A DNA stretch of 64,000 nt from the NCBI GenBank assembly GCA_965248925.1, contig CBDFLE010000006.1, positions 2,016,001 through 2,080,000 of the forward strand. Reading direction: 5' to 3'. How positions within the stretch are numbered: the stretch's first letter is position 1; each line of letters starts with the position of its first letter. Source of the stretch: Candidatus Multivoradales bacterium. Its GTDB lineage: Bacteria > Acidobacteriota > Thermoanaerobaculia > Multivoradales > J023. Below, one piece after another: positions 9,629 through 34,394 of the stretch. A program made the position numbers and the translations under genes. Below the pieces are notes generated by a model, which saw only the letters and a list, made by a program, of their open reading frames with translations, made no database searches and was not told the origin of the DNA.

Positions 9629-10094
9629 AACCGAGCCCCCCCTAGAGATCGCTTTCATCTTGAACGGCGAGCCCTGCAAAGTACAGGTTCCGGCCACCGA
9701 GCGCCTGCTCGACACCCTGCGCTACCGCCTGGCATTGACCGGTACCAAAGAAGGTTGCGGCGAGGGGGAGTGCGGCGCCTGCACGGTCTTGCTGGACGGC
9801 CTGCCGGTGAACTCCTGCTTGGTGCCGACCTATCAGGTGCGGGGCTCACGGCTGCGCACCGTCGAAGCGGTGAGCGCCGCCGAAGTCGACCAGTTGTGGG
9901 CATCGGGCGCCACCCAATGTGGCGCTTGCACTCCGGGGGTAGTCATCACCGCCCGCTGGCTGATCGACCATCCGGCTCCTCTGGAGCACCATAGCGTGCG
10001 CCAGCTGATGGCCGGCAACCTGTGCCGCTGTACCGGCTACGACGGCATTATCGAAGGCGTGGAAGCGGCCCTCGAGCAGCCGAGGCGCGACTGA
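9612..10094 (+). CDS. pucE: Xanthine dehydrogenase [2Fe-2S] subunit
   Basis: GTKEGCGEGECGAC and QCGACTPG...NLCRCTGY cluster motifs. Confidence 0.9.
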   Translation: MSRQAETEPPLEIAFILNGEPCKVQVPATERLLDTLRYRLALTGTKEGCGEGECGACTVLLDGLPVNSCLVPTYQVRGSRLRTVEAVSAAEVDQLWASGATQCGACTPGVVITARWLIDHPAPLEHHSVRQLMAGNLCRCTGYDGIIEGVEAALEQPRRD

Positions 10095-10909: not shown

Positions 10910-10939
10910 TCTTGATCTGTTCCGGCCGCGGAGTTCACC

Positions 10940-12364: not shown

Positions 12365-12495
12365 TCCACCGCGACCGCGCTAATATAGGCGCATCGCGGA
12401 GAGATCTTTTCTCAGCGTTTTCATCCATAGGAAGCTGGGTTGCCGTCGCCTGTGAGGACTGACTCCCGGCGATCAAAACCTCAGAGGACTCACCT

Positions 12496-13158
12496 ATGTC
12501 GAATCGACTGCTTGCCGGAAGCTCTGCCGCCGCCTCGCTAATCTCAGCCTTGCTGCCAGTTCTGCTACTACCCGCCACGGCCCTCGCTGAGCGTGGCCGC
12601 CCGCTGGGCCAACAGCCTTGGCAGCTGACAACGGATCCCAGCACCGTGGTGCTCGAGCTGCGGCGTACCCCAACCCTCCTCGGCGAGACCGATCGCACGC
12701 AAACGGTGCAGGTCTTCGCTGATGGCCGGATTGAGATTCACCAGCCCGCCTACCTGCGGGCCGCGGGTGACTATCAAGGCACTTTGAACGCGGCTGAACT
12801 CGGCGACTTACTCGCCCAACTCGACCGCCAGGGGCTCTTCTCTCTCACCGAGCAGGCCCTGCGGCAAGAGCGTCGAGCAGCCGAAGTTGAGCGTCGCAGC
12901 GGCCAACAGACAATGTTCGAGATTCATGACGGCATGCAAACTTCGATCTCGGTAAAACTAGCCAGCTACAGCGCCGCCGACGGCAGCCTCGCTAGCAACC
13001 TGGAAACCCCCCTCGCCGTCACTAATCTTCAATTGGAAACCGACCTCTATCCCGGCGCCGTGCGACTGGCCGCCCTGGCCGCCGCCGAGCGCACTTTGCT
13101 GGCCTTGGCTGAGCGTGCCGACCTCACACCGCAAACCACCGCCGACGGGAGAAAGTGA
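12496..13158 (+). CDS. Secreted hypothetical protein (DUF6438/emfourin-like pattern)
   Basis: Signal peptide ending ALA; LELRRTP...VQVFADGRI...GTLNAAELGDLLAQLDRQGLFSL...D..TSISV pattern. The stop overlaps the start of the next gene (GTGA). Confidence 0.6.
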   Translation: MSNRLLAGSSAAASLISALLPVLLLPATALAERGRPLGQQPWQLTTDPSTVVLELRRTPTLLGETDRTQTVQVFADGRIEIHQPAYLRAAGDYQGTLNAAELGDLLAQLDRQGLFSLTEQALRQERRAAEVERRSGQQTMFEIHDGMQTSISVKLASYSAADGSLASNLETPLAVTNLQLETDLYPGAVRLAALAAAERTLLALAERADLTPQTTADGRK

Positions 13159-14225
13159 TCATGGCGCGACGCGACCTACTACTGCCGTTTGGATTCGCCT
13201 GCTGTCTGGCCCTCGCCCCATTGGCCGCTCCACCCGCCGCCGAGGCTGGCGCTTACATCTTCGCCGGCGCCACCAACGGCGTCAGCATCGTCACCCACCC
13301 GATTACCTACTTCGGCACCGGCGGGGTGATTCAAGTCGGCGTTTGCATCGACCCGGCGAGCCCAATAGCCGCCGACGCTGAGATCTCGGTGCGCAACATC
13401 ATCACCACTTTCAACGGCTTTCAGCCGCAGAACGGCAATGTCCTGCTAGGCGCCAACAACGACATTCCCGCCGGCAGAGTCGACTTCGAGTCGACCGCCC
13501 TGCACGAGCTGGGTCATTGCATCGGCCTGGCACACCCCAACACTGCCAGCGAATCCGGCCTCGGCGGCGCCGACTCTAACTACACCAAGACCACTCGCGG
13601 CGCCGACAACATCTACGATCTCGACGCTGGCGCCGATGCAGTGCGGGGATCGAGCGACGATCTGCGCGGCGACGACCTCAATCTGCATTGGTTCGAGATC
13701 GGCGTCAATAACCCGTTCACCCAACCGGCAACGGTCGCCGGGTCGACTTACAGCCGCGACCTGGCCAATCTACCGGCCGGCCACACCTTCGCCGCCAACG
13801 CTGACCGTGCCCTATCGACCCTGTTGGGCTTGCCGCTGACTGAGGCGGTGATGCAGCAGGGGGCTTTCAGTGACGAGGATCAACGGGCGCTGGCTTTCGA
13901 CGACGTCACCACTCTGCGCTTTGGCATGGCGGGAATCGACGAGATCGCCGGCAATGCCGACGACTACACTATCGAGCTTTTCTATGCCGGCATGACCACC
14001 GCTTGCGACGTGCTGATTCGCACCACTCAAACCGCCTTCGCCTCGTGCGCGACCGGCGCCACCACCCTCGATGGAAACCACATACGCATCACCAGCGCCA
14101 CCATCACCTTGGGCGGCACCAACGTCAATTGGCACTTCAACGACATGTTGGCGGTCCTCGATGCGATCTTCGCCGATGGCTTCGAAGCTGGCGATTTTGA
14201 CAGTTGGACGAGCGTCAATCCTTAG
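13155..14225 (+). CDS. Secreted metzincin (matrixin/M10-like) zinc metalloprotease with C-terminal IFADGFE motif
   Basis: Signal peptide; HELGHCIGLAH (HExxHxxGxxH); AVM Met-turn followed by LAFDD; ends DAIFADGFEAGDFDSW. Confidence 0.82.
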   Translation: MIMARRDLLLPFGFACCLALAPLAAPPAAEAGAYIFAGATNGVSIVTHPITYFGTGGVIQVGVCIDPASPIAADAEISVRNIITTFNGFQPQNGNVLLGANNDIPAGRVDFESTALHELGHCIGLAHPNTASESGLGGADSNYTKTTRGADNIYDLDAGADAVRGSSDDLRGDDLNLHWFEIGVNNPFTQPATVAGSTYSRDLANLPAGHTFAANADRALSTLLGLPLTEAVMQQGAFSDEDQRALAFDDVTTLRFGMAGIDEIAGNADDYTIELFYAGMTTACDVLIRTTQTAFASCATGATTLDGNHIRITSATITLGGTNVNWHFNDMLAVLDAIFADGFEAGDFDSWTSVNP

Positions 14226-14247
14226 ACTAACGAGGGGCCAAGCGCGA

Positions 14248-15246
14248 TCAAACAAAGGTGCCGAGTAGGCGCAGGCGACTGACTCCACCGTCGGGATAGA
14301 TGCTCAGCCGAAGGTGAGTGAGGGGAGTGGGCGAGTCGATCTCGAAACAGTGTTCATGGTCTGCCGCCAGCGCCTGCCGGGGCACCAACTGGCGCCAATC
14401 CAACTCTGAGTCATCAGGATCGAGCATCGCTCCAGGATCGCCCAGGTCGACCCCTTCCAGCTGGCAGCTGTCAGGATAGTTGCCCTTGAAGTGGCGGGTG
14501 TCGATCAGCGCACGGCGAGGTATCCCCCGCCTGCCCAGGGCGATGATCGCCCAATCGAACCCCGGCCCGCGGCGGCGGCGGGTTTCCCAGCCGTCTCCCA
14601 TGTCGGCACCACGGCCGGGTTGCAACAGGTTGGCCGGTCGGCTGAAGAAATCGTCAGAAGCCGCCACCGCCTGGCCACCAAACTGCACCGCGATCAAATC
14701 GATCTCATCTCCAGATTCGACAAGCTGCCGCCAATCTGGACTGGGTTGGCCAAATGCGCGCAAACGAGCCACCCCGCCATCGGGATATATGTGCAGCCGC
14801 AAGTGGCTGAAGGAACGCGCCTCGTCGATCGCCAGCAGATGGTCGGAACCGCCTGCCAAAGGGGTGCGCGGAATCAGTTCCAGCCAAGCCGAATTCTCGA
14901 TCAGCCGGTCGACCGCCATCTCGGCTGGGACATCAATGGCATCCAGAGAATAGGCTTGAGGAAAATTTCCCAGGAAATGGCTGGTGTCGACATTGATCCC
15001 CACCAAGCGACCGCGCAGGCCGAGCTGCAAAATACAGCGATCGTGGCCAGGACGGCGGCGGCGGCGGCTTTCCCAGCCATCCATCCACTTGCCCCGCGCG
15101 GTGTACTTGAGGGGCACGAATACAGCCGGGGCCAGTTTGATCAGATTTTCTTTCGGCGCGAAGAAATCGTCATTGGCCCACAACACGCGGCCACCCAAGC
15201 GCGGCGACAAGAGGTCCGGCAAGCGGCTGAAATCAGGTTCGGTCAT
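14248..15246 (-). CDS. alc: Allantoicase
   Basis: Two repeats of D(D)FF...DGWE(S/T)RRRR.PG.D...DT.HF.GN...IYPDGGV.RLR. Confidence 0.95.
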   Translation of the reverse strand: MTEPDFSRLPDLLSPRLGGRVLWANDDFFAPKENLIKLAPAVFVPLKYTARGKWMDGWESRRRRRPGHDRCILQLGLRGRLVGINVDTSHFLGNFPQAYSLDAIDVPAEMAVDRLIENSAWLELIPRTPLAGGSDHLLAIDEARSFSHLRLHIYPDGGVARLRAFGQPSPDWRQLVESGDEIDLIAVQFGGQAVAASDDFFSRPANLLQPGRGADMGDGWETRRRRGPGFDWAIIALGRRGIPRRALIDTRHFKGNYPDSCQLEGVDLGDPGAMLDPDDSELDWRQLVPRQALAADHEHCFEIDSPTPLTHLRLSIYPDGGVSRLRLLGTFV

Positions 15247-15309
15247 GGCGGTCGGATCATACCCGCATCAGCGACCGGTGTCCGCTCATCCGCTGGGCCG
15301 CAGCCGCGC

Positions 15310-16338
15310 TCAGAACCCAACCTGCTCGGTGACGATCTTCCACATACCATCCTCCTCGGCCCAAGTGAGGATCTTATGCACCCGGTCGCTGAAAGTATCA
15401 CTACGATAAGCTTGCCAAAAAGCGCAACGGGCGTGACCCCGACCTAGCATGTGAATCTCGATTTGCCCCAGTTGCACATCGATAAACTGAGGTCGCCCCA
15501 GCCGCTGCTGGCGCTGTACCGCCCACCCTTGTCGATCACCACCTCCAGCGGGCTTGAAAGAAGCCGAGTAAAAAGCCAGATAGTCCTCGACCTCCTGCTC
15601 CCTCCAAGCGGCCGCCCACCCCTGGAGCTGATCGACCAAATCCGCCGTCAGACGGTTACCGACACGCTGGGCAAGGGGCGCGTCGACCGCCACTCCTTCT
15701 ACTGAGTAGGCCGCAGTGTCGACCGTCGTAAGGGGCTCGGCCACCTCCACTTTTTCCGCCCACCGAGCCATCGGCGCGACGACCTGAGTGCTCGCGGACG
15801 GCTGGCTGATCAGCGCGTCGCGGTCGGCAAACGCGGCGCCTTCGCCTTGGGCCTGGCGCTGCTCTTCCGCCTGCGCAGCGCGAAAGCCAACAACCACTGA
15901 ACCAGCGCTAGTGAATAGAGTGTGCTCCAGAGGCCGACGTAGCTTCAGCTCGACAACTAAACTTCGCTTCTTGTGCTCTAGCAAAACCGCGCTCAGCGGT
16001 CCGCTAGCAAGTCCCTGCCCGTCGACCTCGGCCACGGCTCGGCATCCTCTGAGTTCAAGACTCACCACTCCCGCCACCGACTCTTCGATTCGCACCCTTC
16101 TGGGATCACCCTCGAAGGCCAGACGCAGTTGCCAGCCGTCTTTGACCGCTACCAGCTGGTAGCTCTGCAAGACGGCGACAGCGCCCCACAGCGGTGTCGC
16201 AACCACCACCAAAGCGAACCCCAGGGCCACTACCGAAGCCACCGCCGAAGGCGATAGCGGCCGCCCAAGAACCGACCTCCGAGCTACGGACGACTGCCGC
16301 TCCCCAGCACCTTCCCAGGCCTTCCACACTCGGAACAT
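15310..16338 (-). CDS. Exported protein with AMIN-like N-terminal domain and NTF2-like (Cds6/L,D-transpeptidase C-terminal-like) domain
   Basis: Hydrophobic N-terminal segment; AMIN-like beta pattern (LRLAFEG...LVVELKL); C-terminal WAAAW...YLAFYS..F...F.QAYRSD.FSD..K.L.W....G.WKI..EQ. Start uncertain. Confidence 0.7.
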   Translation of the reverse strand: MFRVWKAWEGAGERQSSVARRSVLGRPLSPSAVASVVALGFALVVVATPLWGAVAVLQSYQLVAVKDGWQLRLAFEGDPRRVRIEESVAGVVSLELRGCRAVAEVDGQGLASGPLSAVLLEHKKRSLVVELKLRRPLEHTLFTSAGSVVVGFRAAQAEEQRQAQGEGAAFADRDALISQPSASTQVVAPMARWAEKVEVAEPLTTVDTAAYSVEGVAVDAPLAQRVGNRLTADLVDQLQGWAAAWREQEVEDYLAFYSASFKPAGGGDRQGWAVQRQQRLGRPQFIDVQLGQIEIHMLGRGHARCAFWQAYRSDTFSDRVHKILTWAEEDGMWKIVTEQVGF

Positions 16339-16516
16339 AGTCTGATCTCACCCCGGTAAGCCCAGCGCCACCAAAGTCTAAGTGGGTAGCACCGGGGTCG
16401 ACCCGCGCCCCTGGACATGGGTCAGAATCAACTGACTACTGCTCTTCTCGCTTCCTAGAGTAGCAGCTCGCGAGCGATTGGCGGTGCTGCAGCACCGCCA
16501 GCCCGTCAACCAGGGA

Positions 16517-17572
16517 TCAGTCGAGAGCGCCGCGATAGCTCTCCGGTAGTTGGCTGATCAGCTCTTGATGATGTTCGGCAAAGGCTCGGGTCTTGATCAA
16601 AGCCCGGCCGAGGCGACGACACGCACCCTGACGATCTTCTTGCTTGGCCCCGGCACGCAGACACTCATACATCTCGGCGATGTTCTGCCGGTGATCGTCA
16701 AGCTGTATCGCGCCGGCATCGCCGTAGAGCTGGCCATAGAGACGCTGCAACGAAGTTTCGATCGCCTGCTGACCGCTGACCCGGCCGCCGGTGTTGCCGA
16801 AGCGCTCAATGCGGCGGTCGCCTGGACGTTTCTCGGCCGTGCTCTGGTAGACATGGCCGACAAAGGCGGGAGAAGACACCAGCTCCATGGCGACGAAAAC
16901 CGCCCCGCGGTGCCCTTGCTCGGTGACCTGGACGACGTGGGCATGATCCAAAGAGCCATCTCCTTGCCCCAAGAGGCTGCTGTAGAGCACCCGGACCACA
17001 TCTTCGGCGGCCCGGTTGGCGTCGCGCCCGTCGGCGGACAACGGTCGCGACGCGGAGCGCCGCTTGGCGCCCTCGACGCGGATGTTCAAGCGGCCCTGAC
17101 GGCAGTCAGCCGGCAAGCGCTCGAACACCCCCGCTTTGGCGACCCCGGTAAGGCGGTAGCCGAGGATCACTTCACCAGGCTGCTGCGGCGACAGCTCGAG
17201 CCTGGCGACGGCTAGGTCGTCCGAGTCCTGTGCTTTCCAGGTCAGGTGCTGCGGCATATCGATATGCCGCCCCAGACCCAGGGTCGAAAGATGGCCGATC
17301 TCACCCGAGGTCGAATAGGGATTCGGGCCCTGGGCGTCGTGATGGATGAAGAGATGGCTCTCGACACCGCTCTTCACCACGATCGGTTGGCCATAGTCAT
17401 AGAAAACATTGCCGGCATCTCGAGTCCAGATTCTGAACTGGAGGTCGCAGCTTGCCGCCGCCCAAGCCTGGGCCGGAATAAGAGCGAGGGCGAGGGTCAA
17501 GGCGAGGAAGGTCAGGGCTGTTTTTCTGTTCAATTCTTGCTTCTCCCGTATGCTTGAGGTCGAGGTGGGCAC
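16517..17572 (-). CDS. Secreted hypothetical protein
   Basis: Long ORF with a clear signal peptide (RKTALTFLALTLALALIPAQAWA). The true start is probably TTG at 17533. No family recognised. Confidence 0.7.
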   Translation of the reverse strand: MPTSTSSIREKQELNRKTALTFLALTLALALIPAQAWAAASCDLQFRIWTRDAGNVFYDYGQPIVVKSGVESHLFIHHDAQGPNPYSTSGEIGHLSTLGLGRHIDMPQHLTWKAQDSDDLAVARLELSPQQPGEVILGYRLTGVAKAGVFERLPADCRQGRLNIRVEGAKRRSASRPLSADGRDANRAAEDVVRVLYSSLLGQGDGSLDHAHVVQVTEQGHRGAVFVAMELVSSPAFVGHVYQSTAEKRPGDRRIERFGNTGGRVSGQQAIETSLQRLYGQLYGDAGAIQLDDHRQNIAEMYECLRAGAKQEDRQGACRRLGRALIKTRAFAEHHQELISQLPESYRGALD

Positions 17573-17716
17573 CCCGAGATTTTCTTCATCGTACCCGGCC
17601 GGCGTCAGCCGGCGGCGACGCTACTCACTCTGAGTCTGATCACGGCGGCAAAGTCACATCCAATCCCCATGGTGGCGGTCTGCTACCCTGGACCTTGCCC
17701 TACTTGGAGATCTCAA

Positions 17717-18511
17717 TTGCGCATCCACAGGACTTCCCGGCCCATTCTCTGCTGCCTGCTAGCCGTGCTCGGCAGCTGGCCGGCAACAGCGGACGGGGTG
17801 CTCGGCGCCACGGCGGAAATCGTCGAAGGGGCTAGCCAAGGTAGTCGCGGCGGTGTGTCCGACACCGATATTGGCATCGGTTTCTGCGACGATGGAGTGG
17901 TCAAGGACGACGGCGACCCGGACACCGGCTGGGGCTTTGTTCCCAGCGTTGAAAGAGGTGTCTATGTGCAGCGTTTTGAGCCTTCGGACCTGATTTCCCG
18001 CGACCTCGACAAAGTCTGCTTGTGTTGGATCCGCACCCGTCCCGATCCTGACCTCGACTTCGACATCGTCCTTTTCGGCCACAACGCCGAAGAAGAGCAG
18101 CCCGAGAGCCAACCCCTGGCGGCAATGCCAGTGATAGCCGAGGGAGTGCCAGAAGGCATCGTCGGACAGTTCTACTGCTACGACGTGCAGGGGGCGGGTT
18201 TCAGAGCGCCGGTGGGACCCTTCTATCTCGGCGCGCGCTGGAATGCCTCGACCAACGAGTTCTTTTTCCTCTGCGCCGACACCGACCCGACAACGCCAAT
18301 CGTCGACACCTTCTTCTCTTTCAAAGACGGTGAAGAGTGGGAAAGCGTGTTGGTCAGCAACGACCCGATCTTCGCAGAACACCGCGCCACCATGGTCCGT
18401 TTCATCGCCGCCGATGGCCCACGCGGGATACCGACCCTCAGAGTCACTGGCCTTCTCGCTATGGTGCTGCTGCTGCTCGGCGGTGCCCTCGTCGCTCTAC
18501 GCCGGAGATAG
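17717..18511 (+). CDS. Acidic secreted protein with IPTL-CTERM anchor
   Basis: TTG start after a GGAGA RBS, signal peptide, DDG..D.GWG motif, and C-terminal GIPTLRVTG-TM-RRR. The ORF is open from 17669. Confidence 0.75.
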   Translation: MRIHRTSRPILCCLLAVLGSWPATADGVLGATAEIVEGASQGSRGGVSDTDIGIGFCDDGVVKDDGDPDTGWGFVPSVERGVYVQRFEPSDLISRDLDKVCLCWIRTRPDPDLDFDIVLFGHNAEEEQPESQPLAAMPVIAEGVPEGIVGQFYCYDVQGAGFRAPVGPFYLGARWNASTNEFFFLCADTDPTTPIVDTFFSFKDGEEWESVLVSNDPIFAEHRATMVRFIAADGPRGIPTLRVTGLLAMVLLLLGGALVALRRR

Positions 18512-19887: not shown

Positions 19888-20411
19888 TCGATCTCGGCCA
19901 ATGGCTCGACGCCCTCGATGAGCACAGCACTCAGCAAGCGCTGAGCCGTTGCTGTGGCGCCCGAAGATGGATTGCGGCGATGGTCGCTAGAGGCATTTTC
20001 TCAACCGCAGCTGCGGTTCACCAAGCAGCTGAGCAGATTTGGTGGCAGCTGACGCCGGAAGATTGGCTCGAAGCCTTCTCGCACCATCCGCGCATCGGTG
20101 ATCGCCAACTGAGCGGTGCCGCGCGGGAGAATCGCCAGTGGTCGAGCAGCGAGCAAGCCGGCGCTAGCCAGGCCGACGCCACGGTGCAACGGGCGCTCGA
20201 ACAAGGCAACCAGCGCTACGAAGAGCGTTTCGGCCACGTATTTCTAATCTGCGCCAGCGGCCGCAGCGGCAGCGAAATGCTCGCCGAACTCGAACGCCGA
20301 CTGCACAATGACGCCGCCGCCGAGTTGCGCGAAGCCGCCGCCGAACAAGTCAAGATCACCCATCTGCGCCTCGACAAACTGACCGTGGAATCCACCGAGG
20401 GAGAGAGCTGA
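19884..20411 (+). CDS. uraD: OHCU decarboxylase
   Basis: CCG..RW, DWLEAFSHHPRIG, SSSEQAG, GNQRYEERFGHVFLICASG, EQVKITHLRL. Confidence 0.93.
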   Translation: MIDLGQWLDALDEHSTQQALSRCCGARRWIAAMVARGIFSTAAAVHQAAEQIWWQLTPEDWLEAFSHHPRIGDRQLSGAARENRQWSSSEQAGASQADATVQRALEQGNQRYEERFGHVFLICASGRSGSEMLAELERRLHNDAAAELREAAAEQVKITHLRLDKLTVESTEGES

Positions 20412-20749
20412 TGAGCGCTATTACCACCCACATTCTCGACACTTCCCGAGGCCAGCCGGCCGTTGATGTGCAGGTCGTTCTAGCGCTGCGGGTCGACGCT
20501 GGCTGGCGCCAACTGGCCAGCGGCGTGACCGACCGCGACGGCCGCATCGGCGACTTGCTCGACCCCGGCCCGGTCGCCACCGGCACCTACCGGCTGCATT
20601 TCGACATCGGCTCCTACTTCCGCCGCCTCGATCAGGTGGCGTTCTATCCTTGGGCCGAGATTGTCTTCGAGATCGCCGACGCCGACCAGCACTACCATGT
20701 GCCCCTGCTGCTTAACCCCTTCGGCTACTCGACCTATCGTGGTAGCTGA
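20411..20749 (+). CDS. uraH: 5-hydroxyisourate hydrolase (transthyretin-like)
   Basis: ITTHILD, TDRDGR, FYP, HYHVPLLLNPFGYSTYRGS. Confidence 0.96.
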   Translation: MSAITTHILDTSRGQPAVDVQVVLALRVDAGWRQLASGVTDRDGRIGDLLDPGPVATGTYRLHFDIGSYFRRLDQVAFYPWAEIVFEIADADQHYHVPLLLNPFGYSTYRGS

Positions 20750-20761
20750 GGGCCAGGTCTC

Positions 20762-23700
20762 TCAATCGACATCGAATTCTCGATACTCCCCCCGTACTGA
20801 GATCGAGCGCCAGCCTCGCTGTTCACCACCCACTTGCCAGCTCCCCTCGCTGAGCGCTGGAAGCTGGATCTTGCCCTCCGCGTCCGGCCAGAGTTCAACT
20901 CCAGCCAGGCTCAGGATCGCCGCCGTTCGAAGACCCGTGGCGGTTCTCAACTGAATGGGCACTACTGAGTCCGTGGAATCGAGCCGCAGGACGACCTCTG
21001 TCCAAGCCGGCTCTTCGACAACCAACTCGGCCAACTGACCGACGGCAAGTGCCACCGGCGGCCCCAGCGCCAGCTTGCGCCCGCCGAACAGCAACAGGCT
21101 GTCGTAGCTTCCAGGGGGCAGGCCAGCCAGCGTCGCCCGACCCGTGGCGTCAGTGGTCACCACGCGGCGAGCGCCGTTTTCACCCTGAACCGTCAGCATC
21201 ACATTGGCCGCGGGTTGATCTTCCCGGTCGAAAACCTCAAAGCGAAGCTCGGCCGCTTGCTGCCGCCGCAAGACAATATCTACTGGCTCGGCAGACCTGG
21301 TGGGCCATCTCAGATCCGTTTCGCCAGCCGAGGTACCCGCACGAGCCACCAAGCGGTAGGACCCCGGCGGTACATGTCGGATCGTGAATCTCCCTGCCCG
21401 ATCGCAGGAAACCTGGCGCAAGACCTCTTCCCCACCCTGTAGTGCCACCTTTGCGGCTCTGGTCGGCAAACCTCCTGGGTCGACAACTCGGCCCCGTACC
21501 GCCTCGCCGCGGAAACGCAACTCCAACTTCACTGTTTCGGCAGGGGAAACCCAAAAACTCTGGTGATAGGTAGCCCCCGACGCCGTTCGGTAGACAACCT
21601 CGGCATCTCCGGGAAGCAATACGCCAGCACCCGAAAACTTGCCGTCCACTCCGACTTTCATGGTCAGAAAACTCGGCAGATCAGAAAGAAGCTCTTGCCT
21701 CTGCGGCGCACCGGCACCATGGAAGGCCATAAAGACGGGCACCGGCATATCGCTGCCCCTTGGCACAATCTGTACCTGCCCACCAGTTGCCGGTAGCCCA
21801 TCGAGGGTTACCAGCCCGGCGACAGGAATTCGTGCTACTTCCAGCTTCAGCCCATCTACTCGCTCCGCCACGGTGAGGACCACACGCCGGCTGGCTAGCA
21901 ATTGCCCGCTTTCAATCGCCACCAGGTGGTAAGTACCGGAACCGACGTTCGAAAAGCTGAAGCGGCCTGCGGAATCAGCGCGAGCAATGTGCCGAAGACA
22001 GGGATTGTGGATAGGTCCCAAGCGCATTTCGACTCTGACTCCGGGCAGCGGCGTATCTCCTCGGTCTACAACCTCCCCAGCCAGAAACGCTCCAGGACCC
22101 AGGACCCGCGGCGGTAGAACCCGTCGCTCGCCGTCCTGCAATTCTACGATCTCGATCGATGTCAAAACGAACTGCGGCGGCTGCACTTTCAAGCACACGC
22201 TACCGGCACTAAATCCGCTCATTCGGAACTTGCCGAGTACATCGGTCACAACCTCGTAGTCCCCTAACAGACGACTGGCAGCGTTTCGCCCCAGCGGATG
22301 CGCCGCGGCGTAGGATAGCCGCGCCCCGATTGCCGGAAACCCTCCCGGCAACAACAGGGTTCCCTCTACCGAGGCTCCTGAGTCGAACAGCACCAAGCCC
22401 AGGTCTTCGACTCCACCACCCAGGAAAAAGTCCAACCGCTGGGGAAGCGCGCCAGCTGCCCGCAAGGTCAACGCCACTGCCCCTGTCGACAAGCCCGTGA
22501 TCGAATAGCTGCCAGTCGGATCGCTGTAGTCCAGGAAACGAGTTTCGCCGGAACTCTGAACTTCTACCTTCAGCTCGGTTATCGGTGAGAGATCCTCGAG
22601 TCGGAGGGCCTCGAACAGCACTCCATCGGCGCGCCGCAAGACCACCCGCATTGACTGCGAAGGGGTGCTCTCGGCCTCAATTTCCTGCGGCAGAAACCCC
22701 TCGGCCCTGACCTCGAACATGACGAGCGAACCAGCCAATGGCCCTGGCACACCTACCGTGCCGTCTTCAGCCACCAACCACTGTTCCTCAGATTCGAGAT
22801 CGGTCACCAGGGCATTCGCCACCGGCTCGTCTGCCCGATCAACAATCCGCAGTCGAGTCTCCCCACTCGCTGCCAAAACGATGGTCGGCAACGGGTGTGT
22901 AGTGCCCGCCTGCAACACCAACCAGTCTTGCTTTGTCTTGTGCCCCTGCTTTCTCCAGTGACTGAGAAACCTGCCATCGGGCAGTCCGGTCAGCCGGTAT
23001 CTACCCTGTGAGTCGGTCTCGGTATGCCGCCGAAACAGCCGCCCTGGTTCGTCGGCAGTGGGCAGCAAGATCTCGACCTGTACTTTCTCCAGAGGCTGAC
23101 CATCACCCTGCACCACCGAGCCTCTGACACTGCTTGCAGGCTTGACCACAACATCGTGCAGACCGTCCCCCCATTGTCTCAACGAGAATTGAAAGCGAGG
23201 GTCGACAATCTCCACCATCAAAGGCTGATCCCGGCCAACCCCTGGGACTACAAACAAGCCTTGAGAGTCTGACCGACCCGCAATCAAGACCGGTTCCCCG
23301 GTCGATCGAGAATCGATCAATCGATAGCGCAGCTCGACTCCTCCGACCGGGCCGTCCGCGACGACAAAGCGCAAGCGGCAGGATCCGCCAGGCTGGAGGA
23401 TCAGATCCTTGTGTCGTGCCACGTCGCGCACCGCCGCTTCGAGGAGCTGGTGACCCGCTGCCCAAACCCGCACCGTCGCCGACAGCGACAATTCACCGCG
23501 GAAGCGCCCTGACTCATCAGTTCGTATCGTCGATTCCGTAAGGTAAGGCTGCCCAGCAAGATCCCTTCCCCACCACACGAGCGCACCCGGTAACGGCTTG
23601 GACGACGACGACGAGAATATTCGCCAGACTACTGGCAAGCAATCCGAACAATCTTGCTTCACGGTCTCGGAAAAGAGCCAGCGAGTCAGCTCGCCGCTAG

Positions 23701-23872
23701 ATTGCTGGTGAAGAACGAGCGGCCCTCCCGTGGTCTCGCTCTGATGTTCAGCTACTACTGAGGAAGCCGCAATTTGGCCATCAAGGACTGAGAACCAGCG
23801 CTCTGCCGCTCGCACACTAACCGCTGAGGTCAGCAAGGCACCGACCACCAGGGCAAGGCGCAGGATCAACAT
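20762..23872 (-). CDS. Large secreted protein with multiple carboxypeptidase-regulatory-like (CarboxypepD_reg) beta-sandwich repeats
   Basis: Signal peptide MLILRLALVVGALLTSAVSVRA from ATG 23872. Repeated (V/I).G.V.D..G.P...A.V and TD..G.F....L..G.Y.L motifs. No catalytic motif or TonB barrel was seen. The ORF is open from 24037. Confidence 0.8.
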   Translation of the reverse strand: MLILRLALVVGALLTSAVSVRAAERWFSVLDGQIAASSVVAEHQSETTGGPLVLHQQSSGELTRWLFSETVKQDCSDCLPVVWRIFSSSSSKPLPGALVWWGRDLAGQPYLTESTIRTDESGRFRGELSLSATVRVWAAGHQLLEAAVRDVARHKDLILQPGGSCRLRFVVADGPVGGVELRYRLIDSRSTGEPVLIAGRSDSQGLFVVPGVGRDQPLMVEIVDPRFQFSLRQWGDGLHDVVVKPASSVRGSVVQGDGQPLEKVQVEILLPTADEPGRLFRRHTETDSQGRYRLTGLPDGRFLSHWRKQGHKTKQDWLVLQAGTTHPLPTIVLAASGETRLRIVDRADEPVANALVTDLESEEQWLVAEDGTVGVPGPLAGSLVMFEVRAEGFLPQEIEAESTPSQSMRVVLRRADGVLFEALRLEDLSPITELKVEVQSSGETRFLDYSDPTGSYSITGLSTGAVALTLRAAGALPQRLDFFLGGGVEDLGLVLFDSGASVEGTLLLPGGFPAIGARLSYAAAHPLGRNAASRLLGDYEVVTDVLGKFRMSGFSAGSVCLKVQPPQFVLTSIEIVELQDGERRVLPPRVLGPGAFLAGEVVDRGDTPLPGVRVEMRLGPIHNPCLRHIARADSAGRFSFSNVGSGTYHLVAIESGQLLASRRVVLTVAERVDGLKLEVARIPVAGLVTLDGLPATGGQVQIVPRGSDMPVPVFMAFHGAGAPQRQELLSDLPSFLTMKVGVDGKFSGAGVLLPGDAEVVYRTASGATYHQSFWVSPAETVKLELRFRGEAVRGRVVDPGGLPTRAAKVALQGGEEVLRQVSCDRAGRFTIRHVPPGSYRLVARAGTSAGETDLRWPTRSAEPVDIVLRRQQAAELRFEVFDREDQPAANVMLTVQGENGARRVVTTDATGRATLAGLPPGSYDSLLLFGGRKLALGPPVALAVGQLAELVVEEPAWTEVVLRLDSTDSVVPIQLRTATGLRTAAILSLAGVELWPDAEGKIQLPALSEGSWQVGGEQRGWRSISVRGEYREFDVD

Positions 23873-23873
23873 C

Positions 23874-25058
23874 CTAGTTCGCGGCCATCCGGGGCTCCGT
23901 ACTCCGATCGAGCCACTCGACGCGATACAGATGTTGCGATTCAATCTCGGCGAAGCTCTGTAGGCGCTGTAGCAACAAGTACTGGCGGCCGTCTGCGACG
24001 CGGAAAGATCGCAACACGGCGTTCTCTGCAATGGCACCTAAATTCAACGAAACGTCATTCGAAAGTTTGTGGCCCTCGCTGTCGAAGATGTCTGCCACGA
24101 AGGAAACCGAGCCCGCGAGCGAGCGACGGAAAATCACCCCTACCCCATCAGGCCCGTCAATCAAAGCACTAGGGAAATCAATGCCTTCGAGACTGTTGAG
24201 CACCGCTCGCCAATCTTGTCGAGCGCCGCCCATAGGCAGAACCGACTCCGGCGGGAGCCACTTCTCACCATCAATGAGGTAAGGCGTCTCGGCAATCCTC
24301 TTTCCCTGCCGATCGAATACCAACAGTGCAGGATGGCGATTGAGGACCGCGTAAACGCGGTCTTCGTTGAGACTCGCCATCAGCTGGCCACCGCCCCAGA
24401 ACGGTTCCATTGCTTGCCCCAGAGAAGAGGAGCAGAACAGAGGATCTACGGCAAGGTGGTCGCGGCCCAAGTCGGTCATGAACAGGCGGCAGTCCTGACG
24501 TTCGTGTTGCCTTCTCCAGTTGGGATCGCTCAGGTTCTGACCCGTGATAGGCGCCGCAGCTATTAATGGCACACCGACACCAAAGACCCGCTTGTCGGCC
24601 ACCGCCAGAGCGTGAATGGCAAAGAAAGCCCGACCCGAAAACTTGAAGCTTGAGCCCCCCTCCGAGTCCAGCACTTCGACCGACTTCAACAGATAGTCCA
24701 GCAGGACTACAGAACTCCGATCAGCAGCAAGCTGTAGAACGGACGGACTCAGTTGAGCTGCAAATGGCTCGGAAACCGAAGTCTTGCTCTCCACGTCTCG
24801 CAACCAGATGAGAGCCGCGCTGTCGCCAGACCCACCACTTGGGCTATTGATCAGTATCCCACCGGCGGGATGGCCCGCGACCAGAGCCACCGGCAAGAAT
24901 CCCTCGTGGGTCGAACTTAGTCGACTATCTAAGACCTGACTGACACGGATCTCCCAGCTCGCGGCAGCAGATGGAGGAAGCACCGAGAGCGATATGGTGA
25001 AAGCTAAAATAGAGATCGGAAAACGACGAGAAACCCTGCGTGGCACGGTCAGCCCCAA
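23874..25058 (-). CDS. Secreted hypothetical protein, probable beta-propeller
   Basis: Signal peptide (ISILAFTISLSVLPPSAAA) and blade-like repeats (VVLLDY..KSVEVLDSEG, VYAV....PALLVFDRQGKRI, VADIFDSEGHKL). Start possibly GTG at 25046. Confidence 0.65.
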   Translation of the reverse strand: MGLTVPRRVSRRFPISILAFTISLSVLPPSAAASWEIRVSQVLDSRLSSTHEGFLPVALVAGHPAGGILINSPSGGSGDSAALIWLRDVESKTSVSEPFAAQLSPSVLQLAADRSSVVLLDYLLKSVEVLDSEGGSSFKFSGRAFFAIHALAVADKRVFGVGVPLIAAAPITGQNLSDPNWRRQHERQDCRLFMTDLGRDHLAVDPLFCSSSLGQAMEPFWGGGQLMASLNEDRVYAVLNRHPALLVFDRQGKRIAETPYLIDGEKWLPPESVLPMGGARQDWRAVLNSLEGIDFPSALIDGPDGVGVIFRRSLAGSVSFVADIFDSEGHKLSNDVSLNLGAIAENAVLRSFRVADGRQYLLLQRLQSFAEIESQHLYRVEWLDRSTEPRMAAN

Positions 25059-25240
25059 ACAATAATCTCAGCAGAGCATCTAAGGCAACGAATAGTATGG
25101 GCAAGATCTGTCGCGATGCAGACCCCGCCAATAAAGGGCACCCAGTAAATCCAACCAGGCTCGCAGATCGTGGCGGCCGGAACTACTGCTGGGATGCAGA
25201 ACACAGCAACAAGAAAAAGAACGATGAGTTTCTTCTTCAA
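25049..25240 (-). CDS. Small secreted Cys/Trp-rich peptide (63 aa precursor)
   Basis: TTG start with GGAG RBS; MKKKLIVLFLVAVFCIPAVVPAA signal plus a 40-aa mature part with 4 Cys; promoter directly upstream; first gene of a tight operon. Confidence 0.75.
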   Translation of the reverse strand: MKKKLIVLFLVAVFCIPAVVPAATICEPGWIYWVPFIGGVCIATDLAHTIRCLRCSAEIIVWG

Positions 25241-25279
25241 ACGAACTCCAAAAAGATGAGAATATACCAACTTCGAAGT

Positions 25280-25309
25280 ATGTTATCGCCTGACATGTTC
25301 CCTTGTCAA
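25280..25309 (-). promoter_or_regulatory. Sigma70-like promoter of the peptide operon with TGACA-N8-TGTCA inverted repeat
   Basis: Minus strand: TTGACA (25309-25304), 18 nt, TAACAT. The inverted repeat at 25291-25308 overlaps the -35. Confidence 0.55.
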
Positions 25310-25398
25310 GATCCCTGCTGCGGTCGGTCCTTTCCACGGCAAGGCTGCCAACGAGCGAAACCCCAGGCCTCTAGCTGTTTGACAGTAGCCACCGGGTC

Positions 25399-26583
25399 AT
25401 GGACGATTGGCAGCACCTAGCGATGAGCGACCCAAACCACCCGACTGACACCCTGCGGCGGGCCTGGCTGGATTTTCAACCAGCACTGGGCGAGAGTGCC
25501 GCGCGGCTGGTGGCGAGGGGTTCCTGGGTCATTGCCCAAGCCGCCGAGCTGGACGCTGAACTGATCGAGTTGCCGCAGCCCAGCGGCCCCCTGACCGCCG
25601 ACCTCGGCCAGCTGACTCGCCTCGACACCGCCGGCGCCTGGCTGCTGCACCGCACCCTGCTGCACTGGCGCGAGCGCGCGCTGAAGGTGGAACTCGAGGG
25701 ACTGCGTCCTGAATTCGGCTTGCTCCTCGACGAAGTGGAGCGTAGCTACCGGCTTTGCGCGGTGAAGCCACCTCAGCGCAATTCGCTGCTCGGAGCTATC
25801 GAACGGTTGGGCCGAGGGACCCTCGATACACTGGCCACCAGCCGCGATTTCATCGCTTTCTTCGGCGCCGCCCTGGTTTCCTTCGCCCGCACCTTGCCGC
25901 GCCCGCGCCGTTGGCGGGTGACCTCGACCGTGCACCACATGGAAGAAGCGGGTTTCGATGCCTTGCCCATCGTCGGTCTGATCTCGTTCCTGATCGGCAT
26001 TGTGCTGGCCTACCAAGGAGCCGCCCAGCTGCGCCAGTTCGGCGCCCAAATTTTCGTCGCCGACCTGGTATCGATCGCCGTGCTGCGGGAGTTCGGCATC
26101 GTGCTGACCGCGATCATCGTCGCCGGTCGCTCGGGCAGCGCTTTCACCGCCCAGTTGGGCTCGATGAAGGTTCGCGAGGAGATCGACGCCCTGCAGACCC
26201 TGGGGCTCGACCCGATGGAGGTGTTGGTACTGCCACGGATGCTGGCATTGATCCTCACCTTGCCCTTGCTGACTGTCTTCGCCGACCTCGCCGGCCTGTT
26301 CGGAGGCGGGCTGATGAGCTGGGTGGCACTTGACGTGCCACCGGTACAATTTCTCGATCGCATGCGGGCAGCGGTGGGGGTGGGGAGTTTCTGGGTCGGG
26401 ATCGGCAAGGCACCTGTCTTTGCCATGTTGATTGCGCTGGTGGGCTGCTTCGAGGGCTTCGCGGTGGGTGGCTCGGCGGAATCGGTGGGCCGCCACACTA
26501 CCCGCTCAGTGGTCGAATCGATCTTCTTGGTGATCGTTGCCGATGCGCTGTTTTCGATCTTCTTCGACTTGGTGGGGGTGTGA
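25399..26583 (+). CDS. mlaE: MlaE family ABC permease with N-terminal STAS domain
   Basis: LTRLDTAGAWLL (STAS); REFGIVLTAIIVAGRSGSAFTAQLGSMKVREEIDAL; VGRHTTRSVV. Confidence 0.92.
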   Translation: MDDWQHLAMSDPNHPTDTLRRAWLDFQPALGESAARLVARGSWVIAQAAELDAELIELPQPSGPLTADLGQLTRLDTAGAWLLHRTLLHWRERALKVELEGLRPEFGLLLDEVERSYRLCAVKPPQRNSLLGAIERLGRGTLDTLATSRDFIAFFGAALVSFARTLPRPRRWRVTSTVHHMEEAGFDALPIVGLISFLIGIVLAYQGAAQLRQFGAQIFVADLVSIAVLREFGIVLTAIIVAGRSGSAFTAQLGSMKVREEIDALQTLGLDPMEVLVLPRMLALILTLPLLTVFADLAGLFGGGLMSWVALDVPPVQFLDRMRAAVGVGSFWVGIGKAPVFAMLIALVGCFEGFAVGGSAESVGRHTTRSVVESIFLVIVADALFSIFFDLVGV

Positions 26584-31823: not shown

Positions 31824-34394
31824 ATGATCGCTCTACCTCACAACGCCCTTCCCCGCCTCTCTCGACACCTGCTCGCTGCCCTTCTGATGGCCCTGCCCAC
31901 CCTGCTGCTGATCACCCCGGACAGCACCTTCGCCGAGGGCCGACGGGCCCAACGCAAAGCCACGAAAGAAGCCATCGCCGCCCTGCCGCAGCAGTATCGC
32001 GAATGGCTGGCGGAAGTGGTGTTGATTATCTCCGACGCTGAACGGAACTTGTTCCTGAAGCTCGAAGAGCAGTACCAGCGCGACGCTTTCATCGAGCGCT
32101 TCTGGAAAGTGCGAGATTCCTACCCCCGCACGGCGCGCAACGAATACCGCGAAGACTGGTACGCCCGCATTCAGGAAGCGCGGGAGAACTTTGGCCAACT
32201 GGAGAATGATGATCGCTCTCGCATCTTGCTGACCAATGGTTTCCCGCTGCAACGCATACCGGTCAATTGCCGCACTGAGCTGTGGCCGGTGGAGGTTTGG
32301 TTCTATGACGGCAGTGACACGGTCGGTTTCGAGTTTCTGCTGCTCTTCTACCAACCTCACGGCCATGGACCTTTCCGCCTTTGGGACCCCTTTCTTGGTC
32401 TTGACGACCTCAGCCAGAATTCAGGCTTGACGCTGTCCAGAATCGAATCGGTGTGCGGTGAGGACGGACGTGCCATCTTGGCGGCGATCAACTTCTTGCG
32501 CGCCCAAGGAGGCATTCTCGGCGCCCAGGCCGTGCTTTCACGGATCCAGAAAAAGCCCAAGCCACCCAATAAGGAGTGGATCGCTTCATTCTCCACCTAC
32601 TCCACCAAGTTGCCAGAGGGCGCCGAGACCTTCGCTGCTCAGCTGCGGCTGGACTATCCTGGGCGTCACATGAGCCGCTCGGTGATGCAGATCGGCTTGG
32701 CGGTGCCGGTCGAAGCGTTGGCCACCGCCGAACTCGCCGGCCAGAAGTCTTTCAATTTGATGCTCAACGGCGAAGTCTTGCGGGGCGAAGAGCTATTCGA
32801 GAATTTTCGCTATAAGTTCGACTTGCCCACCCGCGAAGTGCCAGGGGACGAAGTCTCGTTAGTCGTGCAACGCTACCTACGACCGGGCAGCTACGAGCTG
32901 ATCCTCAAGGTCGAGGATATCAACAGCGGCCGCTTTCACCGTCTACGCCAAACCATCGAGGTGCCGAGGCTCGACAACATCGTGGCGCCACCACCGCCCA
33001 CCGACCCAGAAACAGCTCGCCTGCTGGCCGAGGCCAACGCGGCGATCAAAAGCGGCGAATCTACCCTCGAACTAGTGCCGCCACGAGGCGGCTGGCAGAC
33101 CGGCCTGTTGCGAGTCAACACCCTGACCACCGGCGAGAACATCGCCAAAGTCACCTTCTTCCTCGACAATCGACCAATCTTGACCAAGCGGCGGCAGCCC
33201 TTCAGCGTCGAACTCGACCTCGGTGCCGTGCCACGACCCAGAGAGCTGCGAATCGTCGGTTACGACTCGCAAGACGAGGAGATCGCCGCCGACGAGCTAA
33301 CTTTGAATGCTGGCCAGCACCGCTTCGCCGTCAACCTCACCGAGCCCCGCCAGGGCAAGACCTACCAGCGCAGCTTGCGCGCCCAAGCCGAGGTGATCCT
33401 GCCCGAGGGTGAGATTGCCGAACGGGTGGAGTTCTTTCTCAACGAGACTCTGGTGGCAACGGTCTACCAGCCGCCCTACCTGCAACCCATCGTGTTGCCC
33501 AGCAGCGAGGAAGTGGCCTATGTCAGAGCGGTGGCCTACACCCTCGACGGAACCAACGTCGAGGACACCGTCTTCATCAACTTCCCCGGCTATTTGGAAG
33601 ATGTCGATGTTGATTTCGTCGAACTCTACACCACGGTACTGGACCGTGACCGGCGACCGGTGGAAGACCTTGAGCTAGCCGACTTCAGCATCCTCGAAGA
33701 TGGCCAACCGCAGCAAGTCGTGCGTTTCGAAGCGGTGCGCGATCTGCCGATCTTCGTCGCCACCATGCTCGATGTTTCGGCATCGATGGATGAGCAGCTG
33801 ATCCCCGCCCGAGACGCCGCCCTGGGCTTCTTCCAGCAGACCCTGACGGCCAAAGATCGTGGCGCGGTGATTACCTTCAACTCTCATCCCAATCTGGCCG
33901 CCAAGTTCACCAACCAGGTCGACGATCTGGCGGCGGGCCTGGCCGGGCTCAAAGCTGAACTCGGAACCGCGCTCTACGACAGCCTGATCTTCACCCTCTA
34001 CTATTTCAATGGCATCAGTGGCCAACGGGCCATTCTGTTGCTCTCTGACGGCAAGGACGAATCCAGCCGCTATGAGTTCGACGCCGCTTTGGAATACGCC
34101 CAGCGGGCTGGTGTCTCGATCTACTCGATTGGCTTGTCGCTGAACCGTAAAGACCTCGACGCCCGACGCAAGCTGAGCAAGCTCGCCGAAGCCACCGGCG
34201 GTCGCAGCTTCTTCATCGACGATGCCGGCGAGCTGCCGGCGATCTACGACGCCATCCAGCGCGAACTGCGCTCACGCTACTTGCTGGCTTACCAATCTTC
34301 GAACACCAGTGGTAGCAAGGCTTTCCGCGCTATCGAGGTGAAAATGAGCGGCTCCGGCCAGCGTGCCTCCACCCTGCGAGGCTACTATCCCTGA
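31824..34394 (+). CDS. Secreted GWxTD-like domain + Ig-like + VWA (acidobacterial VWFA) protein
   Basis: Signal peptide; YREWL.EV..II...ER..F...RD.FI..FW..RD.YP.T.RNE (GWxTD N-region); VELYTTVLD; MIDAS DVSAS; TALYDS; LLSDG.D. Confidence 0.85.
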   Translation: MIALPHNALPRLSRHLLAALLMALPTLLLITPDSTFAEGRRAQRKATKEAIAALPQQYREWLAEVVLIISDAERNLFLKLEEQYQRDAFIERFWKVRDSYPRTARNEYREDWYARIQEARENFGQLENDDRSRILLTNGFPLQRIPVNCRTELWPVEVWFYDGSDTVGFEFLLLFYQPHGHGPFRLWDPFLGLDDLSQNSGLTLSRIESVCGEDGRAILAAINFLRAQGGILGAQAVLSRIQKKPKPPNKEWIASFSTYSTKLPEGAETFAAQLRLDYPGRHMSRSVMQIGLAVPVEALATAELAGQKSFNLMLNGEVLRGEELFENFRYKFDLPTREVPGDEVSLVVQRYLRPGSYELILKVEDINSGRFHRLRQTIEVPRLDNIVAPPPPTDPETARLLAEANAAIKSGESTLELVPPRGGWQTGLLRVNTLTTGENIAKVTFFLDNRPILTKRRQPFSVELDLGAVPRPRELRIVGYDSQDEEIAADELTLNAGQHRFAVNLTEPRQGKTYQRSLRAQAEVILPEGEIAERVEFFLNETLVATVYQPPYLQPIVLPSSEEVAYVRAVAYTLDGTNVEDTVFINFPGYLEDVDVDFVELYTTVLDRDRRPVEDLELADFSILEDGQPQQVVRFEAVRDLPIFVATMLDVSASMDEQLIPARDAALGFFQQTLTAKDRGAVITFNSHPNLAAKFTNQVDDLAAGLAGLKAELGTALYDSLIFTLYYFNGISGQRAILLLSDGKDESSRYEFDAALEYAQRAGVSIYSIGLSLNRKDLDARRKLSKLAEATGGRSFFIDDAGELPAIYDAIQRELRSRYLLAYQSSNTSGSKAFRAIEVKMSGSGQRASTLRGYYP

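Follow-up and report, generated by a model that had tools for sequence, protein, structure and literature searches.

Whether a short, Cys-rich reading frame upstream of two large genes for exported proteins is a gene in its own right, and what its product and the two large proteins do together, is the question raised by a locus in a 64,000-nucleotide stretch of DNA from a Candidatus Multivoradales bacterium (Acidobacteriota), the whole of which is referred to as the window. An earlier reading of this DNA (the original prediction) had described the locus as a secreted cassette composed of a Cys-rich micro-peptide, a putative beta-propeller and a giant protein of CarboxypepD_reg repeats, and had considered it a possibly recurrent, uncharacterized module of Acidobacteriota. 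The present analysis identifies it as a rare, conserved module of two or three exported proteins which comprises two new protein families. The three-gene block spans 20762..25240 on the minus strand, between uraH and mlaE, and is composed as follows:

25049..25240, minus strand: small open reading frame (smORF) for a mini-protein of 63 amino acids (aa), TTG start with GGAG 5 nucleotides (nt) upstream
23874..25058, minus strand: gene for a 394-aa protein predicted to be a six-bladed propeller, TTG start; an alternative GTG start at 25046 would yield 390 aa
20762..23872, minus strand: gene for a 1036-aa protein of CarboxypepD_reg repeats (stalk protein), ATG start at 23872, product beginning with MLILRLALVV

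Recurrence of the module and reality of the mini-protein gene

Six loci combine a clear propeller homologue with readable DNA, i.e., the window, the genomes G176, G418, G515 and G305, and a metagenome contig (L007). As the original prediction had anticipated, all six harbour, directly upstream of the propeller gene or of a gene fusing propeller and beta-sandwich chain (four of these loci), a smORF coding for a signal peptide and the four framework Cys of the mini-protein. Depending on the start chosen, smORF and downstream gene overlap by up to 25 nt or are separated by 2–4 nt. The smORFs outside the window are:

G176: 78 aa
L007: 74 aa, 4-nt overlap
G418: 75–89 aa, 4-nt overlap
G515: 82 aa, 4-nt overlap
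G305: 67 aa, 4-nt gap; propeller and stalk genes overlap ATGA-fashion

Co-occurrence of the smORF with the large genes, likewise proposed beforehand, is evident from 300 genomes of the same order, in which the four strong peptide matches (E <= 1.5e-17) fall in the same four genomes as the strong propeller matches (E <= 3e-68), the latter representing the clear propeller homologues of G000, G418, G176 and G515. The order-wide search additionally yielded seven weak matches to the propeller profile (E 9.4e-7 to 9.6e-4, each covering about 70–100 profile positions) and marginal peptide matches in G576 (E 0.0076) and G508 (E 0.0098). One more propeller homologue, that of G305, was detected among 401 sampled genomes of the class. 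A weak match at the phylum level (G284, E 5.9e-4) was rejected, with a regulator-like gene and an unidentified 317-aa open reading frame (ORF) nearby and neither propeller nor peptide present.

The window mini-protein consists of a signal-peptide-like N-terminus, a 30-residue core with four Cys and an 8-residue tail, the framework being C-x14-C-x10-C-x2-C with an invariant Trp. Alignment with seven homologues revealed L8, C26, W33, C41, C52 and C55 (window numbering) to be invariant, and the first to the fourth framework Cys span exactly 30 residues in all eight peptides, each of which has the one invariant Trp; the coding conservation of the smORF, a point on which the original prediction had staked its case, is apparent from this core. 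The peptides of fusion genes (n = 4) share the more extensive motif C-x-E-A-I-L-x-W-x-W-x4-W-x-C-x4-G-G-G-Q-[VI]-C-I-[LS]-C, of which the window mini-protein retains the framework alone (CEPGWIYWVPFIGGVCIATDLAHTIRCLRC). The cores of the eight peptides are neutral to acidic (net charge 0 to -4), and the window peptide ends in Gly, the other tails in P, T or D. The peptide profile matches the window smORF at E 1.5e-17, the next matches in its own genome reaching only E 0.11 and 0.19.

No Pfam or NCBIfam match was obtained for the window peptide. The NVEALA family (PF14055) is matched by none of the eight peptides at E <= 10, other matches being at chance level and to unrelated families, and the string NVEALA is absent from the aligned peptide sequences. 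A search of a collection of 5.8 billion proteins with the peptide profile returned six proteins, two of them new, one of which is annotated solely as hypothetical protein of an Acidobacteriota bacterium; the peptide P0022 differs from that of L007 just in the signal peptide and one residue of the tail. This search did not recover the peptide of the window itself, the smORF of which may never have been called as a gene in this collection. Four sequencing runs, all of one study, were found to contain the DNA of the region, but no RNA run was, a result that speaks neither for nor against the gene. Conservation at the sequence level identifies the smORF as a real, conserved gene and its product as a member of a new mini-protein family outside Pfam and NCBIfam, since signal peptide and 30-residue four-Cys core are kept across genera and families at an overall identity of only 19–26 %.

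The propeller family is very rare: its roughly two dozen sequences all stem from bacteria that are uncultured or little studied. A word-seeded search of the 5.8 billion proteins with the window propeller recovered only the query itself, phmmer against 1.84 billion cluster representatives detected 18 propeller proteins at E <= 0.001 (10 at E <= 1e-10), and a profile search added four further members; where annotations are present, on a few homologues, they read just "hypothetical protein". Pattern scans with the fusion alignment revealed one relative (L007) among 16 pattern matches in metagenome contigs, and solely G176 itself (1 of 13 pattern matches) in genome contigs.

Seven of the 18 representatives are proteins of 825–1249 aa in which the propeller is located N-terminal to a CarboxypepD_reg chain; three of these seven start within the propeller and represent truncated gene calls. 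The fusion protein of G176 aligns with both large window proteins, i.e., with the propeller (27 % identity, E 1e-20) and, by its residues 393–997, collinearly with residues 423–1013 of the 1036-aa protein (30 % identity, E 7e-52), and therefore links the two window genes by gene fusion. It is the C-terminal ~620 residues of the 1036-aa protein that other genomes encode in one chain with the propeller. These natural fusions give concrete form to the scaffold role that the original prediction had assigned to the beta-sandwich chain, and the six loci, together with the variant described below, support its supposition of a recurrent, uncharacterized module in Acidobacteriota.

The variant was found in genome G276. 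This seventh locus encodes an exported propeller-like protein of 384 aa, followed by an 86-aa peptide with six Cys, the gene of which overlaps the end of the 384-aa gene, and by a 1041-aa CarboxypepD_reg protein collinear with the window stalk protein over ~700 residues (28 % identity, E 8e-18). The nearest ESM-Atlas clusters of the 384-aa protein are the same as those of the window propeller, an Acidobacteriota cluster of 102 members scoring 0.96 and 0.95, respectively. A relationship of the 384-aa protein to the window propeller is a lead, not proof.

Export-type N-termini, as judged by a simple hydropathy heuristic, were found in all 17 module proteins. In the window, all three N-termini contain a hydrophobic stretch of 10 residues (Kyte-Doolittle mean 2.3–3.6), in agreement with the Sec signal peptides originally assigned to them; K or R precedes this stretch in two of the three proteins and is lacking in the 1036-aa protein.

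Structure of the propeller and stalk proteins

The AlphaFold2 model of the 394-aa protein (12-sequence alignment) is a beta-propeller with a predicted local distance difference test (pLDDT) score of 83.2 and a predicted template modelling (pTM) score of 0.83, and its structural matches likewise bear out the fold originally proposed. Its neighbours in VIA-align include the NHL domain of Brat (1q7f, with the highest Z, 17.3), 2qe8 (Z 17.0), the Bacteroides DUF4221 protein 3s9j (Z 16.6), which gave the longest structural alignment (307 residues, root-mean-square deviation 4.2), peptidyl-alpha-hydroxyglycine amidating lyase (PAL; 3fw0, Z 15.9) and BF0058 (4raa, Z 15.1). The neighbours form a plateau of six-bladed propellers, in agreement with Foldseek, and show the fold only, since all are tied at Z 14–17 with ~10 % sequence identity. 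A profile of the propeller family matched the NHL domains of TRIM3 and TRIM2 in the PDB (E 1.1e-5 to 6e-4, ~100 residues). Neither the window propeller nor the family members have a Pfam match to the NHL repeat (PF01436), Pfam, NCBIfam and PADLOC contain no family that the window protein matches, and none of 12 family members matches PF17170 (DUF5128) or PF13970 at E <= 1. By its model, the 394-aa protein is a divergent NHL-like six-bladed beta-propeller. Its nearest ESM-Atlas clusters are the above 102-member Acidobacteriota cluster and then DUF5128/NHL (0.92).

Conserved features of the family are a Cys pair (C190/C209) and the basic motif W-R-R-x-H-x-R-x-D-C in a short helical insert. Besides the Cys pair there are almost no invariant polar residues, a pattern of conservation which does not resemble that of an active site. 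In the public collection, the window propeller (P0001) comprises 340 aa, its start at residue 55 removing the signal peptide; the propeller homologues keep the longer N-terminus absent from P0001.

The 1036-aa protein was recognized by PF13620 (CarboxypepD_reg) with 195.2 bits (cut-off 32.3) in six stretches, which substantiates the repeats originally read from it, and its homologues in G305 and G276 scored 166 bits each. Its AlphaFold2 model (6-sequence alignment) is all-beta, with pLDDT mostly 70–90 from residue ~420 to the end; the pTM of 0.39 is attributed to a beads-on-a-string architecture. The match to the teneurin transthyretin (TTR)-like family PF25020 remained sub-threshold (19.7 bits, cut-off 27).

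Gene starts, promoter and base composition

The longest ORF around the smORF codes for 73 aa (25049..25270). The TTG at 25240 was selected as start, since the resulting 63-aa product (MKKKLIV...) aligns with the N-termini of its homologues. Similarly, the longest ORF around the stalk gene would encode 1091 aa (20762..24037), and the ATG at 23872 was judged the sensible start. If the 394-aa gene starts at TTG, it shares 10 nt with the end of the smORF, and if at the alternative GTG, it follows the smORF after 2 nt; 1 nt separates the stop of the 394-aa gene from the ATG of the stalk gene. Gaps and overlaps of 1–10 nt agree with the tight packing of three minus-strand genes reported in the original prediction. 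Promoter candidate and immediate flanks are:

25280..25309, minus strand: sigma70-like promoter candidate TTGACA-18-TAACAT, 10/12 matches, ~40 nt upstream of the smORF start
20411..20749, plus strand: HIUase/transthyretin gene uraH, left flank
25399..26583, plus strand: mlaE, right flank, divergent from the module

The single sigma70-like promoter proposed for the block is indeed the sole such site in 20400..25600 (5.2 kb), but shuffled sequences contain 1.2 sites on average; the candidate is therefore not significant on its own and its position alone is suggestive.

The claim, made by eye, that the block is A/T-richer and has other codon endings than its flanks was corroborated by the G+C content of third codon positions (GC3), which amounts to 0.651 for the stalk gene, 0.635 for the propeller gene and 0.516 for the smORF, corresponding to the 4.8th, 3.4th and 0th percentile of the genome (mean 0.747, standard deviation 0.052; 2,095 long ORFs, 7.98 Mb). 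The flanking genes uraH, mlaE and mlaF have GC3 values of 0.80–0.81. Module GC3 is also below that of most neighbours in G176 (0.66 vs 0.77–0.87) and G515 (0.75 vs 0.85–0.91), and the gap is smaller or absent at the remaining loci. Low GC3 and patchy distribution would fit an accessory, possibly transferred module and are what suggests the acquisition proposed in the original prediction.

Neighbouring genes

The left flank of the module is formed by a purine-catabolism cluster (xanthine dehydrogenase subunits, DUF6986, allantoicase, amidohydrolase, OHCU decarboxylase and HIUase uraH), and mlaE on the right is followed by genes for an ABC ATPase, an MlaD-domain protein and an auxiliary lipoprotein. 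The 27 flanking ORFs scanned comprise 7 window ORFs and 20 hand-picked from the 40 that passed thresholds of at least 110 aa and GC3 of at least 0.70. Among them, module-specific genes for a thioredoxin, a radical-SAM enzyme, a protease or a transporter were not detected, in line with the original statement that modifying enzyme, transporter, protease and regulator are lacking from the block. The flanking ORFs within ~15 kb of the module contain no thioredoxin or Dsb gene, and PADLOC models assigned none of the three window proteins to a family (E <= 0.01).

Neighbours vary between loci, and the module is not accompanied by a gene for an exporter, maturase or regulator, or by one of immunity-gene size; a fourth conserved gene was not found in the neighbourhoods scanned (six loci and window flanks). 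The MlaEF transporter adjacent to the window module is not conserved at the other loci, and the best MlaE matches in 23 other genomes of the family display 36–46 % identity. In G176 (L005, one of the six loci scanned), genes for a DsbD-type thiol-disulfide transporter and a thioredoxin-like protein are located directly upstream on the same strand; beside them lies a gene for a full-length peptidase M2 of the angiotensin-converting-enzyme type (PF01401, E 1.4e-187):

11539..13497, minus strand: DsbD-type gene
13559..14590, minus strand: thioredoxin-like gene
14813..16825, plus strand: M2 peptidase gene

In G515 (L020), two adjacent MvdD-type ATP-grasp genes (PF21068, E 1.6e-28 and 1.3e-22), which look like graspetide (microviridin-type) maturases, are located directly upstream of the smORF on the same strand, with the contig ending at 8643:

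6449..7456, minus strand: ATP-grasp gene
7453..8607, minus strand: ATP-grasp gene

Directly upstream in G305 (L022), a 1217-aa exported M10 metalloprotease with several PKD domains is encoded (9847..13500, minus strand), which is not conserved elsewhere, and an amine-oxidase-like flavoprotein adjoins the module solely in G418.

Further genes of the window were recorded. The DUF6986 protein (10940..12364, plus strand; E 1.7e-167), encoded between xanthine dehydrogenase subunits and allantoicase, may represent an uncharacterized step of purine catabolism. A 280-aa ORF (17669..18511, plus strand) has no Pfam match, a hydrophobic N-terminus and a C-terminal hydrophobic stretch followed by RRR, which we take to resemble a sorting tail of the PEP-CTERM/exosortase type. 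Two adjacent, paralogous-looking proteins of 856 and 874 aa (31824..34394 and 34363..36987, plus strand) both carry a von Willebrand factor A domain at the C-terminus; one of them has Big_7 as well.

Comparison with known systems

By analogy, the closest counterparts of the module appear to be the cassettes of Bacteroidales which combine NVEALA peptides (PF14055) with six-bladed propellers (DUF5128/PF17170, DUF4221). These are known from database annotation and are uncharacterized. In the literature library searched, NVEALA, DUF5128, DUF4221 and PF17170 were not named, matches to PF14055 stemming from unrelated Plasmodium work; Acidobacteriota and CarboxypepD_reg were not found together, and the match to "carboxypeptidase regulatory-like domain" plus Acidobacteria was unrelated. 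Shared with these cassettes are the gene for a small exported Cys peptide beside that of an exported six-bladed propeller and the lack of an obvious enzyme or exporter; moreover, the structural alignment of the window propeller with the DUF4221 protein 3s9j extends over 307 residues (Z 16.6, fold only), and its neighbour clusters in the ESM-Atlas include DUF5128/NHL (score 0.92). In contrast to them, the peptides (0/8) and propellers (0/12) of the module lack any significant Pfam match, including PF14055 and PF17170, and the third partner is a CarboxypepD_reg chain that is often fused to the propeller. The parallel to peptide-plus-propeller pairs of Bacteroidota drawn in the original prediction thus holds for fold and gene logic and does not extend to membership of the two families.

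Propellers on sandwich domains outside the cytoplasm are also known from other proteins. The archaeal S-layer protein with YVTN propeller and PKD domains (1l0q, Z 14.8) has a propeller head of six or seven blades on Ig- or transthyretin-like sandwich domains, as do the teneurins with NHL propeller and TTR domain (9g42 and 8fia, Z 15.0–15.2). Both differ from the module in lacking a separately encoded mini-protein, and sequence identity is ~10 %; the YD shell and toxin-like domain of teneurins are absent from the module. In YWTD propellers of the LDL-receptor type, a flanking EGF module of ~40 residues with three disulfides packs against the propeller within the same chain. A six-bladed propeller and a disulfide-locked module of ~40 residues (predicted here) are common to both, and 3v65, 3p5b and 3soq are among the structural neighbours (Z 14.2–14.9); the small partner described here has its own gene and four Cys, and the likeness is an analogy only. 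Operons of class II bacteriocins encode a GG-type leader, a dedicated ABC exporter/peptidase and a small immunity protein, whereas the N-termini of the module are Sec-type, and neither an ABC exporter nor an immunity gene is conserved adjacent to it at the loci scanned.

Methylamine dehydrogenase (MADH) combines a propeller heavy subunit with a Cys-rich light subunit; its heavy chain and QhpB of quinohemoprotein amine dehydrogenase (QHNDH) are seven-bladed propellers, unlike the propeller of the module with its six predicted blades. According to PMC7876137, QHNDH is composed of subunits gamma (~9 kDa), beta (~37 kDa) and alpha (~60 kDa), the Cys of gamma forming four cross-links (three Cys-to-Asp/Glu thioethers and one Cys-Trp quinone) and alpha carrying two c-type hemes. 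The same source describes radical-SAM QhpD, protease QhpE, exporter QhpF and flavoprotein QhpG as needed in the operon, and a gamma leader that is cleaved in the cytoplasm and is not of the Sec type. Compared with QHNDH, the module is similar in combining a small Cys/Trp protein, a protein of ~37–40 kDa and a large beta-rich protein, periplasmic in QHNDH, and dissimilar in its Sec-type signal and in lacking radical-SAM enzyme, protease, ABC exporter, flavoprotein (scanned neighbours) and heme motifs, no CxxCH being found in the 1036-aa translation on reading by eye.

Proposed function and alternative explanations

The reality of the mini-protein gene, its conservation and co-occurrence with the large genes, their fusion, the fold and the export-type N-termini are directly established. 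As to function, the reading mildly favoured over all others taken together places a propeller head on a beta-sandwich stalk in the cell envelope, with the mini-protein, locked by disulfides, as small subunit or ligand of this head. The Sec-exported mini-protein would mature to an anionic, aromatic/Trp-rich product of ~40–50 residues, its four framework Cys probably forming two disulfides. Translational coupling would provide mini-protein and propeller in fixed proportion. The propeller would constitute the head of the long transthyretin-like (CarboxypepD_reg) stalk, the joint being covalent where both are fused and presumably non-covalent where they are split, as in the window. The mini-protein is envisaged to dock onto the propeller as small subunit or captive ligand, the basic helix W-R-R-x-H-x-R being the candidate docking site for the acidic peptide, and the whole assembly, located in the periplasm or at the surface, would serve in binding or adhesion and would not be an enzyme.

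Several properties argue for such a stoichiometric assembly, i.e., the tight coupling of peptide and propeller genes at every locus, the fixed length of the peptide core despite 19–26 % identity, the absence of processing and export genes, and the fusion of propeller and stalk in many members. The non-enzymatic reading is favoured by the small number of invariant polar residues in the propeller family. Peptide subtype follows propeller subtype, which is weak evidence, since relatives share labels.

Weighing against this assembly are, on the part of the proteins, the poorly modelled N-terminal 420 residues of the stalk protein, the low identity (19–26 %) of the window peptide to the others together with its lack of the GGGQ[VI]CI[LS]C motif, and the common occurrence of the propeller fold in enzymes, with PAL, lactonases and strictosidine synthase at Z 14–16. 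On the part of the loci, the 384-aa protein of G276 has no detectable sequence similarity to the propeller family (hhalign probability 0.5 %), and the gene order of this variant differs. Furthermore, the fusion gene of G418 (L019; 5720..8171, minus strand) is broken by a frame change, its homology to the G176 protein running in one frame to ~6597 and resuming in another at 6547 with ~200 residues missing. Either degeneration of this copy or faulty assembly may account for the break; in the former case, the module can decay.

An unlikely, though the most serious, alternative regards the mini-protein as a released effector, i.e., a Sec-dependent, disulfide-stabilized bacteriocin or signal peptide, with the propeller-stalk as its carrier, receptor or immunity factor. 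A small, exported, Cys-stabilized and aromatic-rich product encoded by the first gene of the operon would suit this role, as would low GC3 and patchy distribution, both frequent among accessory and competition genes. Cationic antimicrobial peptides are nevertheless unlike the neutral to acidic cores, the loci scanned do not share a dedicated exporter, a protease for processing, a regulator or a small immunity gene, a fusion protein of 850–1250 aa would be an odd immunity factor, and the tight gene overlap suggests equal amounts of the products instead of an excess of peptide. Less probable again is a propeller that acts as an enzyme maturing the exported mini-protein by cyclization, amidation-type lyase chemistry or cross-linking, the module then producing a modified peptide. 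The structural neighbours include PAL (3fw0, Z 15.9), virginiamycin B lyase (2z2n, Z 14.1) and a Diels-Alderase (7x36, Z 15.2), and the window peptide ends in Gly; this Gly is replaced by P, T or D in the other tails, the propeller family contains no invariant constellation of His, Asp, Tyr and Arg, the structural matches, tied at Z 14–17 and ~10 % identity, reflect the fold only, and fusion to a long stalk would be unusual for a maturase.

It is extremely unlikely that the mini-protein is a cofactor-bearing small subunit of the tryptophylquinone (Cys-Trp quinone) type, accompanied by propeller and large beta protein as the other subunits. The composition resembles that of QHNDH (PMC7876137), and the core contains acidic residues besides its four invariant Cys and single invariant Trp. 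Counterparts of QhpD, QhpE, QhpF and QhpG are not conserved in the neighbours scanned (the amine-oxidase-like flavoprotein being adjacent in G418 only), the export-type N-terminus contrasts with the QhpC leader cleaved in the cytoplasm, and the large protein has no CxxCH by eye where QHNDH alpha carries two c-type hemes. A bolder, very unlikely conjecture holds jointly that Trp and the four Cys form a cross-linked quinone- or thioether-type cofactor without a dedicated maturase, that the peptide-propeller pair is a new extracytoplasmic redox or catalytic unit on a stalk, and that it represents one branch of a wider, undescribed class of Cys peptides with six-bladed propellers in Bacteroidota and Acidobacteriota. 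Least likely of all is a non-functional smORF placed upstream of the propeller gene by chance; its failure to appear among the proteins returned from the 5.8-billion collection would accord with this, but the 30-residue four-Cys core and signal peptide are kept across genera and families at six of six loci.

Implications

The immediate impact of the module is limited by its rarity, with about two dozen sequences from uncultured or little-studied bacteria. It illustrates how gene callers routinely overlook small exported proteins: the window peptide was not returned from the public collection, and the propeller had been called there without its signal peptide, both apparent annotation gaps. With the module, the poorly known theme of Cys peptides paired with six-bladed propellers gains a branch in Acidobacteriota, one that has another third partner and in which natural fusions occur. 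With 40 aa and 360 aa, the system is small and suited to co-expression and structure determination. If the mini-protein is a captive ligand or a cofactor carrier, this would show what such cassettes do.

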